This document shows, piece by piece, positions 5,395 to 30,576 of a stretch of 32,000 bases of DNA. A program made the translations under genes and the position numbers. How positions within the stretch are numbered: the first letter of the stretch is position 1; each line of letters begins with the position of its first letter. The notes under the pieces are model-generated. The model was not told the origin of the DNA, ran no database searches, and was given only the letters and a program-made list of their open reading frames with translations. Origin of the DNA: Candidatus Lokiarchaeum ossiferum (GTDB lineage: Archaea; Asgardarchaeota; Lokiarchaeia; Sigyniarchaeales; Promethearchaeaceae); assembly GCA_025839675.1 (NCBI GenBank), contig CP104013.1, positions 4,740,001 through 4,772,000 on the forward strand. The letters run 5' to 3'.

Positions 5395-5904
5395 ATGAAC
5401 ATCGAATATGAAATCAATCAGTCACAACCTGTTGAAAATGTGTTAATTTTAAAAAAATATAAGGGAAGTACTATTTCCCAACTGATTGTTGCAAGTATTT
5501 TTTCTGCTGGTTTATACTTTCTTATCGGCTTTTACATCTTTATTTTAAGTATAATCTTGTTGTTGCTCGCTATTGTTATTGAGAACTTTCCCTCAAAATA
5601 TGATCAGATTGAATTTACAAGTTATGGTATTGAGTTATTAAAGCAAAAATCAGGAGATCTTGTTGAAATTATTTCATTGAATCAACTGAAATCATTCAAA
5701 ATTGAGTATAAACAATATAATCATAAAGGTTATACTCATTTTGGGATAGAATTATCATTAATATTGTGTGATGATAGATATCTAAATTTAGACCTATCAA
5801 ACTATGTTTTAAATGAATGGGAAGTTGTTGAACGTTTATCAGAACAGTTACGCGATTATTTTCTTCAATATACTGGGATGATTGATTCCCAAGTTATTCA
5901 TTAA
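5395..5904 (+). CDS. Hypothetical small membrane protein (TM hairpin plus soluble domain)
   Basis: 169-aa ORF starting at ATG. TM hairpin LIVASIFSAGLYFLIGFYIFILSIILLLLAIVI, followed by a beta-rich region beginning YDQIEFTSYGIELL. No family recognised with certainty. Confidence 0.55.
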   Translation: MNIEYEINQSQPVENVLILKKYKGSTISQLIVASIFSAGLYFLIGFYIFILSIILLLLAIVIENFPSKYDQIEFTSYGIELLKQKSGDLVEIISLNQLKSFKIEYKQYNHKGYTHFGIELSLILCDDRYLNLDLSNYVLNEWEVVERLSEQLRDYFLQYTGMIDSQVIH

Positions 5905-6183
5905 TAACATTATTTATAGTCATGAATTTTTTTTTTAAACCAAACCATAATAAAACCTTTTTTTTCCTGATATGACTTAGTCATCTCAGTTTTTTCATTT
6001 TTTCAAACATTCAAAATTTAAACATTTCTTAATTAACTATTCAATATCTCTCTTCATCTGACGATTATGACCCAGATCGTTAGAAATAGTCCACTTAGTT
6101 TTCAATAAAAAGTCCTAAATGTCAAACCAAGGTCAAAAATTAGATCAAAAAAAAACATTACATATCATTGTGAACTTTATTGA

Positions 6184-10498: not shown

Positions 10499-10656
10499 CA
10501 AGATTTCATAGATGATCTTCCTATTTGGATTTGAGTATGCTAAAATTTATTGTCTTGGAATGAAATATCTCCGTCATGAAAAATGAAAGGAAAAATTGGA
10601 CCTCTTGAAAGATAATAAAAAAAAAATGTGTTATTTTGACTTTCGTCGTTATATTT

Positions 10657-13671: not shown

Positions 13672-14706
13672 TCAAAAATCGTCAAAATAATACGTTTTCA
13701 CAATCTTTTCTGTCCGGAGAATTCCAATACGGATGATTTCGGAATTAATTAGCACTTTTTTGATATTTGTGGTAAAATCCTCCACTTTTTCTAGTAAAAC
13801 TGCAATATCTTTGGGGACAGCAATGGTGTTTACTCCTATGCAAAAATAGAAAGGAAACTCTTCCCCAACAGTAATAAAAAATTTCTTTGTATAAATTTGA
13901 TTGAAACCAACAGTAAACTGTGGAAATTTTCCTTCAAATCCAGAAAAATCAAATTCTTTCAAATACGCTGAGAGTGTTTTTATATTGCTTTGTAAATGGT
14001 CAGGATTGGTAAAATTTCCAATTTCAAAGAAGTTCTTAGTAAAAAGAATTCCAAAATTCAGGGCATTTTCTTTGCAGAATTGACCAATGGTTTTACAAAG
14101 TGTTTCATAAATGTCTTCATTACTCAACATAGGCTGTGTAAATGCGGAGATCACGCTTAATGGATGATGAATTGAAGTGTGAAATATAGCTGGAGGATTA
14201 TTTGCTTTTGCTTGAACTTTTGGAAGGATTTCTTCTAAAAACTCATTTTCAACCTTGGTAAAATCGACACTTCCAGAATACTCTGGATCAATTTTGTGGA
14301 AAAATAAATATAATTTGGCATTTGGGCTAAATTCAATCGCTTTTTCGAAAGTTTTAAGAAAATAAGCCATGGATTCACGTAAATTTTTGGTATCCTGACT
14401 ATCAACGATATAATAGATGTAGCGAATTCCTTCAAAATATTTTTTGGGATTATTTAAATAATTTTGTCGATACCTTTCTTGCCCTCCAAAATCCCAAATC
14501 AATAATTCTCGTCCCAAAAATTCAATACTTGTTCTTTCTACACTCTTGGTTGGAGCCAAAGACATTAATGCTTCGAATTGGTAAAGGACTGATTTAACAA
14601 TGGACGTTTTTCCAGCATTTCCAAGACCCAATATTGCTATTTTTTGGACCTTCTTTGCATCTAATTCTTTTTGCAATTCTTTCCGTTCATAATCTCGCAG
14701 AATCAA
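13672..14706 (-). CDS. Rag/Gtr-family small GTPase with fused C-terminal (roadblock-like) domain
   Basis: G1 GLGNAGKTS, G3 LIWDFGGQ, G4 HKID (the Rag-specific H in place of N), G5-like HTSIHHPLSVISAF. The block SPNAKLYLFFHKID parallels human RagA SPDAKIFCLVHKMD (recalled sequence). The total length of 344 aa, with about 150 aa after the G domain, matches the Rag architecture. There is no ATG before the P-loop, so the start is presumably TTG at 14706. Confidence 0.85.
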   Translation of the reverse strand: MILRDYERKELQKELDAKKVQKIAILGLGNAGKTSIVKSVLYQFEALMSLAPTKSVERTSIEFLGRELLIWDFGGQERYRQNYLNNPKKYFEGIRYIYYIVDSQDTKNLRESMAYFLKTFEKAIEFSPNAKLYLFFHKIDPEYSGSVDFTKVENEFLEEILPKVQAKANNPPAIFHTSIHHPLSVISAFTQPMLSNEDIYETLCKTIGQFCKENALNFGILFTKNFFEIGNFTNPDHLQSNIKTLSAYLKEFDFSGFEGKFPQFTVGFNQIYTKKFFITVGEEFPFYFCIGVNTIAVPKDIAVLLEKVEDFTTNIKKVLINSEIIRIGILRTEKIVKTYYFDDF

Positions 14707-19662: not shown

Positions 19663-20175
19663 TCATTCCAGAATAAATTTCCAACCACAATAGTATTCTG
19701 GTGGATGTTCATCGGGAGGGCAACAAATACATTCAGTTCGAATGCGAGAATCTATGGCTTTAGCAAATAATCCATATTCCTCAACTCCCACTTCTTTACA
19801 TGGAAAATCGGGTAAATTATTTCTATTTCGCGCGGTTTGAACCCTACACTTGTTCATGTGGAAGATAAATGAATTTTCCGTAATATCTACAATCTCTTGT
19901 ACATTGATATTTGCATATAATCGGTATTTCAACGCCTGCATCAAACCTTTTAGTCCAGGATTTTCTTCCAACCCTAAAAACTGTTTAATCTTTTTAGCCT
20001 CGATCACTGTAAATCGTTTCCAACCTGCAACATCATATTTTATGGCTTCTCTCATTCCAATATCACGTTCAATTGCTTGAAACCAACAACCATCATGTGC
20101 GAGCCAATTTTTGGATATCATCTCGATGTAATCTAAAAGTTGTTCCTTCGAAAGATTTTCAATATCTTTTCTCAT
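19663..20175 (-). CDS. Conserved hypothetical cytosolic protein with a C-terminal Cys cluster
   Basis: ORF with ATG at 20175 (TTG at 20187 is an alternative start). NWLAHDGCWFQAIE...WKRFTVIEAKKIKQFLGL resembles an uncharacterised conserved family (possibly DUF6125-like, from memory only). The C-terminus carries C..(x14)..C...CICCPPDEHPPEYYCGW. Confidence 0.6.
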   Translation of the reverse strand: MRKDIENLSKEQLLDYIEMISKNWLAHDGCWFQAIERDIGMREAIKYDVAGWKRFTVIEAKKIKQFLGLEENPGLKGLMQALKYRLYANINVQEIVDITENSFIFHMNKCRVQTARNRNNLPDFPCKEVGVEEYGLFAKAIDSRIRTECICCPPDEHPPEYYCGWKFILE

Positions 20176-20242
20176 AGGTTTGATCAAAACAGATTAGATT
20201 TAAAATTTAGCTAATACACATTCAAAAAACTGAAAAATTTTT

Positions 20243-20822
20243 CTTTCACTTCAAGGTTAATAGACATATTCACCCATTGATAATTTGATTTTCGTCGAGC
20301 GTTATACTTCGGAGTTAATAGATACATATTCACCGATTAATAATTTGATTTTCGTCGAGCGTTATACTTCGGAGTTAATAGACATATACTCACCGATTAA
20401 TAATTTGATTTTCGTCGAACTTTACACTTCGGAGTTAATAGACACATATTCACCCATTGATAATTTGATTTTCGTCGAGCATTACACTTCGGGGTTAATA
20501 GACATATATTCACCAATTAATAATTTGATTTTCGTCGAGCATTACACTTCGGGGGTAATAGACATATATTCACCCATTGATAATTTGATTTTCGTCGAAC
20601 ATTACACTTCGGGGGTAATAGACATATATTCACCCATTGATAATTTGATTTTCGTCGAACATTACACTTCGGGGTTAATAGACATATATTCACCCATTAA
20701 TAATTTGATTTTCGTCGAACATTACACTTCGGGGTTAATAGACATATATTCACCCATTGATAATTTGATTTTCCTCGAACATTACACTTCGGGGTTAATA
20801 GACATATATTCACCCATTGATA
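20243..20822. repeat. Tandem direct repeat array with a 60-bp unit, nine full copies plus partial copies at both ends
   Basis: Units begin exactly at 20281, 20341, 20401, 20461, 20521, 20581, 20641, 20701 and 20761. Consensus TAATTTGATTTTCGTCGAACATTACACTTCGGGGTTAATAGACATATATTCACCCATTGA. A 5'-truncated copy lacking 2 nt lies at about 20243-20280. Confidence 0.97.
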
Positions 20823-20857
20823 TAGGTGATAATTCAAAATAGGAAAAAAACAAAAGA

Positions 20858-21940
20858 TTATATATATTTTTTTGCAACCAAATATTCCGCGCTCAAAACT
20901 CCTCCCCTTCCTGCACCCAATTCCGTATTATGGGAAAGCACAGTAAATTTAAAACCGTTGGGAAAATTCGTTTTGGAAATTCCTCCTACGTACGTAATCA
21001 TCCCTGAATGATCATTACATCTATTTAATTCAACACGTGGTTGAGGTCTGTATGGTTCAGAATCATTAAATACTCGTATTGGATACTCTGGTGCATTCGG
21101 AAGATTCAAACCTTCGGTCTCCCCTTTAAAATTTGTTAGAATCTCTTGAATTTCTTCAACTGTTGTTTGTTTTACTGTTTGGATGAAAACACTTTCCATA
21201 TGGCCATTGATGACTGGGACCCTATTACATTTTGCATCCATCATGATATCAGGTGCCGTTATTTTGCCTTCTTCAATAATTCCAAATATTTTCTTGAGTT
21301 CTTTGATTATTTTTTCTTCTTCATCGGGAATATAGGGGATGACATTACCTAATATATCATAAGATGGGGTACCAGGATATCCTGAGCCAGAAATTGCTTG
21401 TAGTGTGGTCACATGGATTGATTTAATTCCAAACTTTTTAAAAATAGGAAAAGTTGCTATAGCTAAGCCAACTGTACTGCAATTTGGTCCGGGGCATATA
21501 AATCCCTTCCATCCTCTATCCGCTTTTTGTTTATCAAATAATTTATAGTGAATTCCATTAACAAATGGAAGGAAAATGGGTATGTCTGGTTCATATCGAT
21601 ATGCAGAAGCTGTGCTAATAACTGGTTTCTGTATCGCTAGTTCTGCTTCCATTTTATTTGCAATCGTACTGGGAACCGCACTAAAAATTATGTCAATATT
21701 ATTAATATCGGCATCGTAGATGTCTGTTATGGGCATATCCAAGATATGTGGAGATGTCAAATGTGATGATATGCCTTTTCGTGTTTCTCCATATGTTTTT
21801 CCTATGCTTTTTGTACTTCCATGAATAGATACTATATTGAACCATGGATGTCCGTCTAATGCTTCGATAAATTGCTGGCCTGCCATACCAGAAGCTCCTA
21901 TTACCGCAACATTTTTTTTGCTTGTTTCGATGTTGATCAC
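20858..21940 (-). CDS. asd: Aspartate-semialdehyde dehydrogenase
   Basis: N-terminal Rossmann motif VAVIGASGMAGQQF. Active-site block GPNCSTVGLAIA (catalytic Cys). C-terminal HGHMESVF-type block (VINGHMESVFIQT) and HNTELGAGRG. GTG start at 21940. Confidence 0.9.
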   Translation of the reverse strand: MINIETSKKNVAVIGASGMAGQQFIEALDGHPWFNIVSIHGSTKSIGKTYGETRKGISSHLTSPHILDMPITDIYDADINNIDIIFSAVPSTIANKMEAELAIQKPVISTASAYRYEPDIPIFLPFVNGIHYKLFDKQKADRGWKGFICPGPNCSTVGLAIATFPIFKKFGIKSIHVTTLQAISGSGYPGTPSYDILGNVIPYIPDEEEKIIKELKKIFGIIEEGKITAPDIMMDAKCNRVPVINGHMESVFIQTVKQTTVEEIQEILTNFKGETEGLNLPNAPEYPIRVFNDSEPYRPQPRVELNRCNDHSGMITYVGGISKTNFPNGFKFTVLSHNTELGAGRGGVLSAEYLVAKKYI

Positions 21941-22117: not shown

Positions 22118-22750
22118 ATGGTGAAACAATGGGGTTTAGTTCTTTATTTGGACAATATAATTCTGAATAATTATTGGCGAAAATATTACACCTATTTAGA
22201 GCTCGGTTGGGATGATGCATCAATCAAACAATATTTATCGCAGAAGCAGTATCTAATGCAAGTTGCATCTTTTAGTACTCCCACGGTTACTTTTTCTGCG
22301 AGTTCACGAAGAAACCGATTTTACTCCATCTATAATCGTTTAGATTTGCTCGATCAAGATGTTGCTTATGGTGAATCAATCAACGGTTTGAAGAAACTGG
22401 CTCTTAATTATGATATTTTTGTAATTTCAGCACGATCTATTGATCTAAAGGATAAAACTCTCGATATTTTAACGAGATTAGGATTTCCAATGGAATCTTT
22501 AACCATTTTCTTTAAAAAAGGTAATGAACAATTGCATCAATATCGGAAAAAATGTCTCGAAAATATTCATGAAAAATATAAATCTGGTGTGGGAATTTCT
22601 TTACAACAAACAGATATTGCATTATACGAACGGTTCAATTTCACTCCCATTGCATTCACTTCAGTTAAAGAAAAACAGGAATTCGATGGGAAAGTACAAG
22701 CAATTTGTCAAGATTGGAACGATATTTTAATGGCATTAAATTGTCATTAG
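22118..22750 (+). CDS. Hypothetical protein, possibly a HAD-like fold with degenerate catalytic motifs
   Basis: ATG at 22118 is preceded by AGAGGA at 22105-22110. VLYLDNIIL, IFVISARS and GVGISLQQTDIAL sit where HAD motifs I, II and IV would be, but the nucleophile Asp positions are not conserved. Weak assignment. Confidence 0.5.
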   Translation: MVKQWGLVLYLDNIILNNYWRKYYTYLELGWDDASIKQYLSQKQYLMQVASFSTPTVTFSASSRRNRFYSIYNRLDLLDQDVAYGESINGLKKLALNYDIFVISARSIDLKDKTLDILTRLGFPMESLTIFFKKGNEQLHQYRKKCLENIHEKYKSGVGISLQQTDIALYERFNFTPIAFTSVKEKQEFDGKVQAICQDWNDILMALNCH

Positions 22751-23377: not shown

Positions 23378-25318
23378 TTAAGATTCAAATGAATTTGGAT
23401 CAAATAACTCATTTCCAGGCACTGTATACTTATTATGGCATACAGGGCAGGAGTTATATTTTTGAATCCACCAAACCGCACATGTATAATGGCTTAAAGA
23501 ATCACAAAATTCACATTTTATATAATTATCTTCTGCCACTTTAACCGATTTATGGCAAATTATGCATTTTTTTGATTTTAAACCTTTTTCATTAAGTTTC
23601 TCTTCAAGAAGGGACAAAAACCTTTTTTTCTCCTCTTCATATTTCTGCTTACGCACATCGAGACTTGCTAGTTTGGTCGTTATTTTTTCTATCTGCAGAC
23701 GGATATCTTTTTCGGAAAAACCTTCTGGGGAGACAATTTTGGTAGAAAAAAGATCAAAATTTTCATTGGGAGTAGACACATCCTGAATAATATTAAATAA
23801 TTTTCCTTCTTTTTCCAAAACTCCTGAAAATTGATCAAATAATTGAACAAGGGAAGTTCTTAAGGAAAATTTGGAGCGATTCAGAATTTCGGAGTATTTT
23901 TCTTCCCAAGAATCAATATATGAACTGATGTTTATCTTTTTCTCGCTATATTCTTTAAATATTTTATTCATGCGTTCTTTAAGAGATGTAGCTCGTGTGT
24001 TGAAATCTTCAATTAATTCATTCATGGGGGTTAAGTCTGGTAGGTTTTCCAAATATGGAGTAGTTTTATTTTGGTAATCGAGAAGTAATGTTTCTAATCG
24101 CCCAATTTGTTTGCTTATCTTTTGTTCAATCTCCAATTTTACATTATTTTCTTGAACTGAATCAGAATATTCCTCAAAATCATTCAACTTGCGATTTATT
24201 TCACCGCGTAGTTGGTTAATCATGTTTTGATTTTTTCTCAAAATTTGTTTCCACGGTTGAACAATAGGGGCAATTTTTTGGCTCCAATTCTCCAGTGCAT
24301 CCAATATTTGGAAAAACTGCCCTCCAAATTTTTGAAGTTCTTTGTTTGCTGCATTCAGATCTCCTTGTTTTTTTTGTGTAATCTGATCTTGAAACTCTTC
24401 TAATTGGAGTTTAATATTATGTGGAATTTCTTTGGAAGCAATACTTTGTTCGTTAAACACATAGAGAATGCCATATTTTTTTGAGATTAAACTCATTTCA
24501 AAATTTATTTGCCGATTTAAATATAATTCCAGTTGTTTAGCAATTAATTTTTTCTGGATTTTATCTTTAAAGGAAGGGTAGGATAATTGGATCGCTTCTT
24601 TAGAATAAAGTAAATATAAAAATTCTTGCTTGCAATAATCTAAAGACAAAGTCGCGTGGTCAGAAATTATTGGTGTGGTAAAAAGTTCTAAAAATTGAAT
24701 ATTTTGATTTTTAGTGGATTTCTGCAATGATTTTAACTCTTCTTCTAAAATTCCAATTTCTTCAAAAATTTTCATCCATGAGACGGGATATATGTTCAAA
24801 TGAACAGTTCCTTGTTTTAAACATTCAATTGTATACCAAATCTCTGGAAGTTTTTGAGTGGGTGAATTATTTTTTGGTAAGAGATCTGGATGTTGTATAT
24901 TATAGGGTGAATTAAATAACAATGATGAAAATGAATCTAATGTGGAAAGGATGCTTGATTCAATCTTGCTGGTTTCGTTATAAAATTTTTCCAAAAAACT
25001 AGAATATTTATACAAAGATTGGATTGAACGAATAGTTGAGATATTGTTTCCTAAATTTTGATGAATTAATTTACATTCAGAAAATAATTCACTGGGTAAG
25101 TAATAAAGGTCTAAATTCTCTAAAATGGGTATGATTCTTTTAATTGCAGCAAGATATTTGGTCAAATCACCAAGAAGCTTAATTTTAATTTTTTTTTCCA
25201 ACTTTTTCACATCAGAGATTGATGTTAGGAGTTTTTGACCTTTGGAATCAATTATTTGTCCCAAAATCTCACTCACGAAATTAAAGATTTGAAATTTATT
25301 ATTAAAAAGCTTAACCAT
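23378..25318 (-). CDS. Large alpha-helical/coiled-coil protein with a C-terminal C4HC3 RING/PHD-type zinc finger
   Basis: 646 aa. The last 60 residues are CIICHKSVKVAEDNYIKCEFCDSLSHYTCAVWWIQKYNSCPVCHNKY, i.e. C-x2-C-x13-C-x2-C-x4-H-x2-C-x10-C-x2-C (encoded by nt 23438-23566). The rest is low-complexity helical sequence with long heptad-like stretches. Confidence 0.8.
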   Translation of the reverse strand: MVKLFNNKFQIFNFVSEILGQIIDSKGQKLLTSISDVKKLEKKIKIKLLGDLTKYLAAIKRIIPILENLDLYYLPSELFSECKLIHQNLGNNISTIRSIQSLYKYSSFLEKFYNETSKIESSILSTLDSFSSLLFNSPYNIQHPDLLPKNNSPTQKLPEIWYTIECLKQGTVHLNIYPVSWMKIFEEIGILEEELKSLQKSTKNQNIQFLELFTTPIISDHATLSLDYCKQEFLYLLYSKEAIQLSYPSFKDKIQKKLIAKQLELYLNRQINFEMSLISKKYGILYVFNEQSIASKEIPHNIKLQLEEFQDQITQKKQGDLNAANKELQKFGGQFFQILDALENWSQKIAPIVQPWKQILRKNQNMINQLRGEINRKLNDFEEYSDSVQENNVKLEIEQKISKQIGRLETLLLDYQNKTTPYLENLPDLTPMNELIEDFNTRATSLKERMNKIFKEYSEKKINISSYIDSWEEKYSEILNRSKFSLRTSLVQLFDQFSGVLEKEGKLFNIIQDVSTPNENFDLFSTKIVSPEGFSEKDIRLQIEKITTKLASLDVRKQKYEEEKKRFLSLLEEKLNEKGLKSKKCIICHKSVKVAEDNYIKCEFCDSLSHYTCAVWWIQKYNSCPVCHNKYTVPGNELFDPNSFES

Positions 25319-30498: not shown

Positions 30499-30522
30499 TT
30501 AAATAGTATATTAAAGAAAAAA

Positions 30523-30576
30523 ATGACAGAGTCTAAAAAAAATGACAGAGCCTAAAAAAAATGACAGATCCTAAAG
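30523..30576 (+). repeat. 19-bp tandem repeat (two full copies plus one partial) that triplicates the ATGACAGA start region of cdc48
   Basis: ATGACAGAGTCTAAAAAAA at 30523-30541, ATGACAGAGCCTAAAAAAA at 30542-30560, and ATGACAGATCCTAAAG from 30561 to 30576. The three ATGs fall in three different frames. Confidence 0.9.

Follow-up and report, generated by a model that had tools for sequence, protein, structure and literature searches.

Between the asd gene and a gene of the DUF6125 family, the 32,000-nt stretch of Candidatus Lokiarchaeum ossiferum DNA analysed here (contig CP104013.1, positions 4,740,001 to 4,772,000; hereafter the window) carries a tandem array of 60-nt units, which comparison with relatives identifies as an orthologous feature of the DUF6125 upstream region that is older than the saturation of synonymous sites and has its sense orientation on the minus strand. 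Its most likely role, in a clade of Loki-type Asgard archaea, is that of a multi-site platform on which a regulator docks; as part of the DUF6125 promoter region it may well be a conserved DNA element acting in cis, with tandem protein-binding sites upstream of a TATA box that lies about 30 nt before the ATG. A first-pass annotation, made from the sequence of this DNA, had listed four candidate roles for the array, and the one favoured by the comparative data is that of a protein-binding array or repeated promoter-associated element.

The array, its homologues and its unit

Tandem Repeats Finder (TRF) reports a single array (20247-20822; period 60, 9.6 copies, 93% matches, 0% indels, score 942), and a register cut every 60 nt from 20281 to 20761 yields nine full units. 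The promoter-proximal truncated copy corresponds to unit positions 23-60 minus 2 nt, and the array ends with TA at 20821-20822, in agreement with the extent and unit number first described. Every unit is repeated over all 60 nt, at 83-100% identity and with no unique segments. Units 1 to 9 differ from the consensus at 8, 7, 3, 3, 2, 1, 1, 0 and 1 nt, respectively, and the near-identity of the distal, asd-proximal copies bears out the earlier view that these are the youngest. The 18 nt said to be invariant in eight of nine copies, TAATTTGATTTTCGTCGA, are indeed exact in eight, with one mismatch in the ninth; at three or fewer mismatches this string has ten matches in the window, against 0.16 expected, and nine of them lie inside the array. 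The sole match outside, at 10632 with three mismatches, was dismissed as chance. Variation falls at unit positions 14, 19, 21, 25, 33, 35, 43, 45, 49, 55 and 59, close to the clusters given in the first-pass annotation, except that the last cluster reaches 59 and that position 14 varies too. Logan short-read contigs from runs SRR22273277 and SRR22273276 encode DUF6125 and asd proteins identical to those of the window. One such contig, coming from the DUF6125 side, stops 13 nt into the first full unit, and the other, coming from the asd side, breaks off after 33 nt of array, so that the repeat boundaries are seen in independent data and assemblers were evidently unable to cross the repeat; the window sequence is the single source of the copy number of 9.6.

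The choice of anchor gene proved decisive in finding homologous arrays. In locus searches based on asd, the nearest relatives had asd proteins no more than 62% identical, with neither synteny nor arrays; DUF6125 rather than asd is the right handle. A homologue search based on DUF6125, together with the contigs of its closest homologues, revealed that the array goes with DUF6125 and not with asd. The closest genomes are metagenome-assembled genomes (MAGs) of Promethearchaeota (Loki-type Asgard archaea), among which four other lineages, with DUF6125 proteins 69-85% identical, possess a homologous array in the same place and orientation, giving a comparative set of five lineages including the window. 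These are L019 (DUF6125 85% identical; period 61 nt; at least 3.2 copies, the contig starting inside the array), L021 and L023 (73%; 70 nt; 3.3 copies), L024 (69%; 60 nt; about 4.3 copies) and L026 (69%; 60 nt; about 5.3 copies). Each array shares the orientation of DUF6125 and lies directly upstream of that gene. The first-pass annotation had suggested looking for the unit in relatives, and homologous arrays are thus present at the orthologous DUF6125 locus in four other lineages; the array is neither a filler of the gap beside asd nor a one-off, recent product of slippage, but an orthologous feature of the DUF6125 upstream region.

Homology extends to the units themselves. Read on the minus strand, the window unit is 82% identical to that of L019, a homology evident by eye, and best-rotation unit identities range from 34/60 to 42/60, as compared with 25-27 ± 1.7 in shuffles (p ≤ 0.0002). 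Across the window and 40 loci, a unit profile matches only arrays upstream of DUF6125, in the window always on the minus strand, and the box pattern described below is likewise confined to these arrays. For a dispersed minisatellite or a family of miniature inverted-repeat transposable elements the unit would be expected at several unlinked loci of a genome; within the window and these loci it was seen at the DUF6125 upstream region only. Exact-pattern scans with the unit gave zero matches in each of the genome, metagenome and viral contig collections. A viral or mobile origin found no support either: the three-box spaced pattern returned 42 loci from viral contigs, but these hold unrelated repeats and none was matched by the unit profile. 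More distant DUF6125 genes (64-67% identity), which reside in HGD-D/CCG or ArsR/ATPase contexts and include one from a Heimdall MAG, have no array and no boxes.

Read in the DUF6125 sense, the window unit has the consensus TTATCAATGGGTGAATATATGTCTATTAACCCCGAAGTGTAATGTTCGACGAAAATCAAA, and the units of all lineages present the same elements in the same order, namely box A, box B and GACRAAAAT. Box A, the best conserved segment across the five lineages, is a 16-bp pseudo-palindrome of the form TATYAA-NGGG-TGAAYA; the string GGGTGAATA occurs seven times in the window, always inside the array, against 0.31 expected. In L021, L024 and L026 box B reproduces box A as a direct copy (TTATCTGGTGAATATG), and in the window (TATTAACCCCGAAG) and in L019 (TATTAACCACGAAG) it has diverged. 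The core of box A is separated from that of box B by 22 nt in every lineage, approximately two helical turns, and the sole large length change, a 10-nt insertion in L021 that repeats part of the GAC element, corresponds to roughly one turn of the helix. The coordinates of one representative unit and of the surrounding features are collected in Table 1.

Table 1 The array, a representative unit and neighbouring features in the window
Feature	Position	Strand	Basis
Tandem array, nine full 60-nt units and a promoter-proximal truncated copy	20243..20822	-	TRF, register, profile
Promoter-proximal degenerate copy: box A and decayed box B, 2-nt deletion	20243..20280	-	register; same junction in Logan contig L001
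Box A, representative unit (sense TATCAATGGGTGAATA), pseudo-palindrome TATYAA-N4-TGAATA	20747..20762	-	recurs every 60 nt
Box B, same unit (sense TATTAACCCCGAAGTG), 22 nt downstream of box A	20725..20740	-	unit alignment
GACGAAAAT element, same unit (GACRAAAAT in all lineages)	20708..20716	-	unit alignment
Putative DUF6125 core promoter, A/T-rich, TATA-like (sense CTAAATTTTAAATC), end about 22 nt before the ATG	20198..20211	-	read from sequence
DUF6125 gene, 170 aa, travels with the array; predicted V4R/Bet3-like fold	19663..20175	-	Pfam PF19620, E 1e-73
T-rich stretch directly after the asd stop (sense TCTTTTGTTTTTTTCCTATTTTG)	20836..20857	-	read from sequence
asd, archaeal-type aspartate-semialdehyde dehydrogenase	20858..21940	-	TIGR00978, above its cutoff
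Conserved 210-aa gene	22118..22750	+	52% identity to L021 orthologue; synteny

Constraint on the boxes and a proposed role in DUF6125 regulation

The age of the array can be gauged from the gene beside it. At four-fold degenerate sites DUF6125 is only 15-45% identical between lineages, i.e. saturated, yet 22 of 72 alignment columns are invariant between the lineage consensus units, clustered in three places. Polymorphisms within the arrays avoid these lineage-invariant columns (5/110 as opposed to 39/201; Fisher p = 2.6e-4), placing the conserved boxes under site-specific constraint, and the DUF6125 TATA-like element invariably has the array directly upstream of it. At the same time, mean pairwise unit identity is 87-96% within an array and 51-82% between lineages, which is the signature of concerted evolution. 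Judged from sequence, the array is old and selectively maintained, and is neither debris nor a gene. The presence of asd in the window, where the array stays with DUF6125, supports its linkage to the latter.

A TATA-like element is found between array and ATG in all lineages, 23-35 nt before the ATG in L019, L021, L024 and L026. In L024 this element is a degenerate last box, while in L021 it comes directly after the last GACGAAA; in both, a degenerate final unit supplies it. Such spacing suggests that the DUF6125 mRNA is leaderless or carries a very short leader, the start site being a predicted one.

We envisage the following mechanism for the array. Each unit would offer two 16-bp pseudo-palindromic boxes of the TATTAA-NGGG-TGAATA type, their cores 22 bp apart, and the GACRAAAAT element, and the units would be presented head-to-tail directly upstream of the TATA box of the apparently leaderless mRNA. 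A sequence-specific and probably dimeric DNA-binding protein would occupy the 6-20 boxes, probably cooperatively, and occupancy would set DUF6125 transcription, whether by activation or by repression; in relatives the divergent 210-aa gene might be controlled as well. Unequal recombination or slippage would homogenise the units, accounting for their concerted evolution, and would also alter the copy number, which could tune output and might in this way confer a benefit on long arrays. DUF6125 itself was considered as the array's own DNA binder and rejected, as its predicted fold is V4R/Bet3-like without a helix-turn-helix and makes it no obvious autoregulator.

Several observations weigh against this regulatory role. 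The neighbourhood contains no conserved transcription-factor gene, and no binding protein was identified. The sample comprises only five lineages, and collapse may have affected the copy numbers in short-read MAGs. Between the last box and the TATA element lie about 0 to about 70 nt, depending on the lineage. Finally, conservation of the boxes proves constraint on their sequence but not a need for many copies.

In the main rival explanation, one A-B-GAC module alone would do the work of an operator or promoter-proximal site, and its amplification would be neutral noise from slippage or unequal crossover, i.e. a variable-number tandem repeat (VNTR) built on a conserved site. We regard this as possible but distinctly less probable than a selected array. 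It draws on the divergence gradient of the window array, whose near-identical distal copies point to recent expansion, on a second small tandem duplication at another gene start in the window, and on assemblies that differ by whole units while encoding identical DUF6125 proteins. Thus L022 holds 1.3 copies as compared with 3.3 in L021 and L023, the difference being exactly 140 nt, and L028 holds 1.3 as compared with about 5.3 in L026, although short-read collapse is possible in both cases. The low-copy assemblies are short-read contigs for which collapse is to be expected. The apparent whole-unit differences, which may be an artefact of assembly, fit a selected array and neutral amplification alike. 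More difficult to reconcile with neutral amplification is the multi-copy state of all five lineages despite saturated synonymous divergence. Decayed partial units also flank the arrays, and the arrays are therefore old. In addition, the polymorphisms of all copies, and not just those of the promoter-proximal one, avoid the conserved columns.

The individual assemblies carry their own record of the repeat. The L021 array (5747-5974) has a higher-order, 140-nt structure in which unit 3 is identical to unit 1 and unit 4 resembles unit 2, and L022 (5887-6005) is without exactly one such double unit relative to it. A run of N lies inside the array of L027, the L025 and L029 contigs end just short of the array, and that of L020 stops within the 5' end of the gene itself. 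Every short-read assembly examined is either broken or collapsed at the array, and such elements will therefore be systematically missing from MAGs.

A bolder extension of the docking-platform reading, and in our judgement a rather unlikely one, is that these are enhancer-like platforms of Asgard archaea: long, selected arrays of composite sites that would bring a chromatin complex or numerous regulator molecules to the DNA upstream of a basal TBP/TFB promoter, with array length serving as a heritable rheostat for a gene encoding a V4R/Bet3-fold sensor. If true, the promoter architecture would be nearer to the upstream activating and enhancer clusters of eukaryotes than to archaeal operators with one or two sites.

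Coding, RNA and architectural alternatives

The plus strand, antisense to DUF6125, could in principle encode a tandem-repeat protein with the unit NLIFVEHYTSGLIDIYSPID. A plus-strand frame is open from 20264 to 20842, through the entire window array, and has a TAG before it at 20261 and no ATG, as reported in the first-pass annotation; its only start is a TTG at 20285. Taken in register with the boxes, the corresponding frame (IFV...YSP) is likewise open in L026 and almost open in L024, and 6 of the 13 substitution events within the window array are synonymous, a marginal excess (binomial p = 0.04-0.11). However, the window and L024 offer only TTG starts and L026 no start codon at all, while the frame is broken by the 61-nt period of L019, the nearest relative, and by the 70-nt period of L021. 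Differences between lineages are spread evenly over codon positions 1, 2 and 3 (7/8/11, 8/9/9 and 5/6/7), with no codon-position bias. That strand being rich in pyrimidines, 60-75% of composition-matched shuffles also leave an antisense frame open. The open reading frame (ORF) found no homologues among 5.8 billion protein clusters and no record by exact look-up, and the gene tables of related loci list no gene at the array. We therefore consider the young tandem-repeat ORF, one of the roles first proposed, to be largely refuted already and highly improbable. Pfam DUF5368 was rejected as an assignment for the repeat ORF (20285-20842, plus strand): its 28.8 bits exceed the cutoff, but the score is summed over the repeats and no single stretch is significant, which would mislead automatic annotation.

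It is also conceivable that the array is transcribed and acts as RNA, either as a series of weak promoters giving nested leaders or as a repetitive non-coding RNA with many binding sites for a protein; on balance this too is unlikely. In the promoter variant, GACGAAA would be a transcription factor B recognition element (BRE)-like sequence followed by an A/T-rich stretch, and CGAAAAT/CAAAAAT does fit the archaeal BRE consensus. The junctions noted above fit this variant as well, since the last GACGAAA of L021 runs directly into the presumed real TATA (TTTTTTAT) and the TATA of L024 is a degenerate box. Nevertheless, the A/T stretch after GACRAAA is broken by G/C, whereas other window genes are preceded by long A/T promoters, and the best conserved segment (GGGTGAA) has no basal-promoter role. 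Support for an RNA could be sought in the intergenic tandem repeats of Borgs, for which regulatory RNAs have been proposed (PMC9879509), but no consensus fold is apparent here (RNAalifold -1.18 kcal/mol), the sense strand is no more stably folded than shuffled sequences (z = -0.16) and the window has no Rfam match, all of which disfavours the structured repeat RNA among the roles first suggested. The hairpin described in the first-pass annotation is formed by the right half of box A paired with the left half of box B, and its conserved part is only the AATA/TATT core; its lack of compensatory changes holds across lineages too, with 438-496 of 500 shuffles reaching the observed values.

The rejection of CRISPR in the first-pass annotation stands, as all 60 nt are repeated without unique spacers, no CRISPR direct repeat (DR) was matched in Rfam, and no Cas domain was present among the 29 window proteins scanned against Pfam.

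A further, quite improbable reading takes the array as architectural DNA, in the form of a positioned-chromatin platform, a sopC-type centromere-like partition site or a replication origin. Archaeal histone tetramers cover about 60 bp, and three lineages have a 60-bp period; furthermore, the units are tandem direct repeats each with a small dyad, as in sopC of the F plasmid. Periods of 61 and 70 exist too, however, and the array displays no 10-bp periodicity of G/C or A, the ~12-bp harmonic not being significant over all harmonics (p = 0.08-0.99). An origin with origin recognition box (ORB) repeats was rejected because there is no Orc1/Cdc6 domain, all units are direct repeats, and cumulative GC skew does not reverse in a sustained way at the array but only dips locally where the minus-strand genes lie. 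Plasmid iterons and a sopC-type centromere were set aside in turn, as no rep or parA/parB gene is linked and the neighbours are asd, DUF6125, GlcD/GlcF-like oxidoreductase genes and transporters. Neither orc1/cdc6, parA/parB nor rep genes were present in the window or in related loci, and the close tie to one small gene would be unexpected for an origin or centromere.

Genomic setting and comparison with known systems

The gene to which the array is tied encodes a protein whose AlphaFold2 (AF2) model is of high confidence, with a predicted local distance difference test (pLDDT) score of 93.9. By Foldseek this model is most similar to the V4R-type phenol-sensor domains of PoxR, MopR and DmpR and to Bet3/TRAPPC3 proteins, including a TRAPPC3 of Thorarchaeota (E about 5e-4, template modelling score about 0.56). 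An invariant Cys/His cluster comprises C110, C126, C149, C152, H157 and C163. Together, the predicted fold and this cluster suggest that DUF6125 may be a small-ligand- or metal-binding, sensor-like protein. Our literature search found no paper on DUF6125 or on the SRR accession.

In relatives, the 210-aa gene and DUF6125 diverge from a common intergenic region, the one that contains the array. The gene order in L021, L024 and L026 is EamA, a 650-670-aa protein, a protein of about 197 aa, the divergent gene of about 210 aa, the array and DUF6125, beyond which lie convergent CCG-Fer4 and FAD-oxidase genes. Among the lineages with a readable upstream region, only that of the window has asd between the 210-aa gene and the array; asd is absent from this position in L021-L024 and L026. 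As the relatives otherwise show the gene order of the window, asd is a lineage-specific insertion (or was lost elsewhere) beside a pre-existing array. It stands alone in the window (20858-21940), whereas in the AMARA_1 MAG (L003 9941-14991) it heads an asd-dapA-dapB-lysA/dapF cluster; its solitary state here, its clustering there and its absence at the locus in L021, L024 and L026 imply that asd was relocated in the window lineage. The T-rich stretch after its stop codon is plausibly an archaeal oligo-T terminator that would separate the asd transcript from the array.

Elsewhere in the window, a 344-aa small GTPase with matches to the Gtr1/RagA and Arf families (13672-14706, minus strand), a eukaryote-like signature protein typical of Asgard archaea, adjoins a ZnuA/ABC-3 metal transporter and a DtxR-like repressor. 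A 646-aa protein (23378-25318, minus strand) bears a C-terminal RING-H2-like Cys/His finger (CIICHKS...CEFCDSLSHYTCAVWWIQKYNSCPVCHNKY); it has no Pfam or NCBIfam match, and its synteny is kept in related MAGs. The second tandem repeat of the window (30517-30575) consists of 3.1 copies of 19 nt (AAAAAAATGACAGAGCCTA). Its third copy holds the ATG (30561) of a CDC48-like AAA ATPase gene, with two copies upstream, so that the start region of an essential-type gene has been triplicated; each of the two upstream copies creates a 10-codon upstream ORF.

Tandem repeats and operators in promoters are familiar from bacterial promoter VNTRs, contingency loci and yeast promoter repeats, and from archaeal upstream activating sequences (UAS) bound by Ptr2 or Lrp-type regulators. 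The array resembles these in its placement upstream of the core promoter, in its short boxes with fixed internal spacing, and in an apparently variable copy number that could tune expression. It differs in that its unit is much longer (60-70 bp, with two boxes and a third element), in that up to about 10 units or about 20 boxes are present, and in being orthologous across species at saturated synonymous divergence. We found no described archaeal example of such a tandem operator array, and to our knowledge archaeal regulatory elements described so far usually have one to three sites, while transcriptional regulation in Asgard archaea is essentially unexplored. An archaeal UAS in single copy provides a point of reference (PMC11705074).

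Analogies can also be drawn with non-coding repeats. Like minisatellites of the mycobacterial interspersed repetitive unit (MIRU) type and other prokaryotic non-coding satellites, the array is an intergenic, head-to-tail series of repeats in the 40-100 bp range, with imperfect copies and apparent whole-unit differences; unlike MIRUs, which form a dispersed multi-locus family, its unit was seen at one orthologous locus only among the sequences searched. In a survey of prokaryotic satellites, non-coding ones with long units were rare and satellite families usually species-specific (PMC6749651), whereas the array is common to at least five lineages. Closer in setting are the tandem repeats of Borgs, extrachromosomal elements of Methanoperedens, which are likewise archaeal, intergenic and direct, show incomplete repeat copies at their borders and have a proposed regulatory role. 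Borg repeats are perfect, A-rich and recently formed, and are generally not common even to closely related Borgs (PMC9879509), while the array is imperfect (87-96% mean pairwise identity between units of one array), chromosomal and conserved across five lineages. With CRISPR the array has in common regular repeats that break short-read assemblies, but it is without unique spacers, cas genes or a CRISPR-DR match. The F-plasmid sopC site and plasmid iterons are tandem direct repeats each with a small dyad that could seat a dimeric protein, as here; in contrast, the array has no partition or replication genes nearby and sits in a chromosomal housekeeping region, tied to one small gene.

Set beside these systems, the array would appear to be a kind of putative cis-regulatory tandem repeat that is of real interest for gene regulation in Asgard archaea. 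It provides a concrete cis-element, with defined boxes and a defined target gene of ligand-sensor-like fold, and comparative sequence alone has here revealed a repeat platform of 200-600 bp that has held its place upstream of the same gene through the randomisation of synonymous sites. It also shows that a prokaryotic non-coding minisatellite can be an orthologous, selected feature rather than slippage debris.

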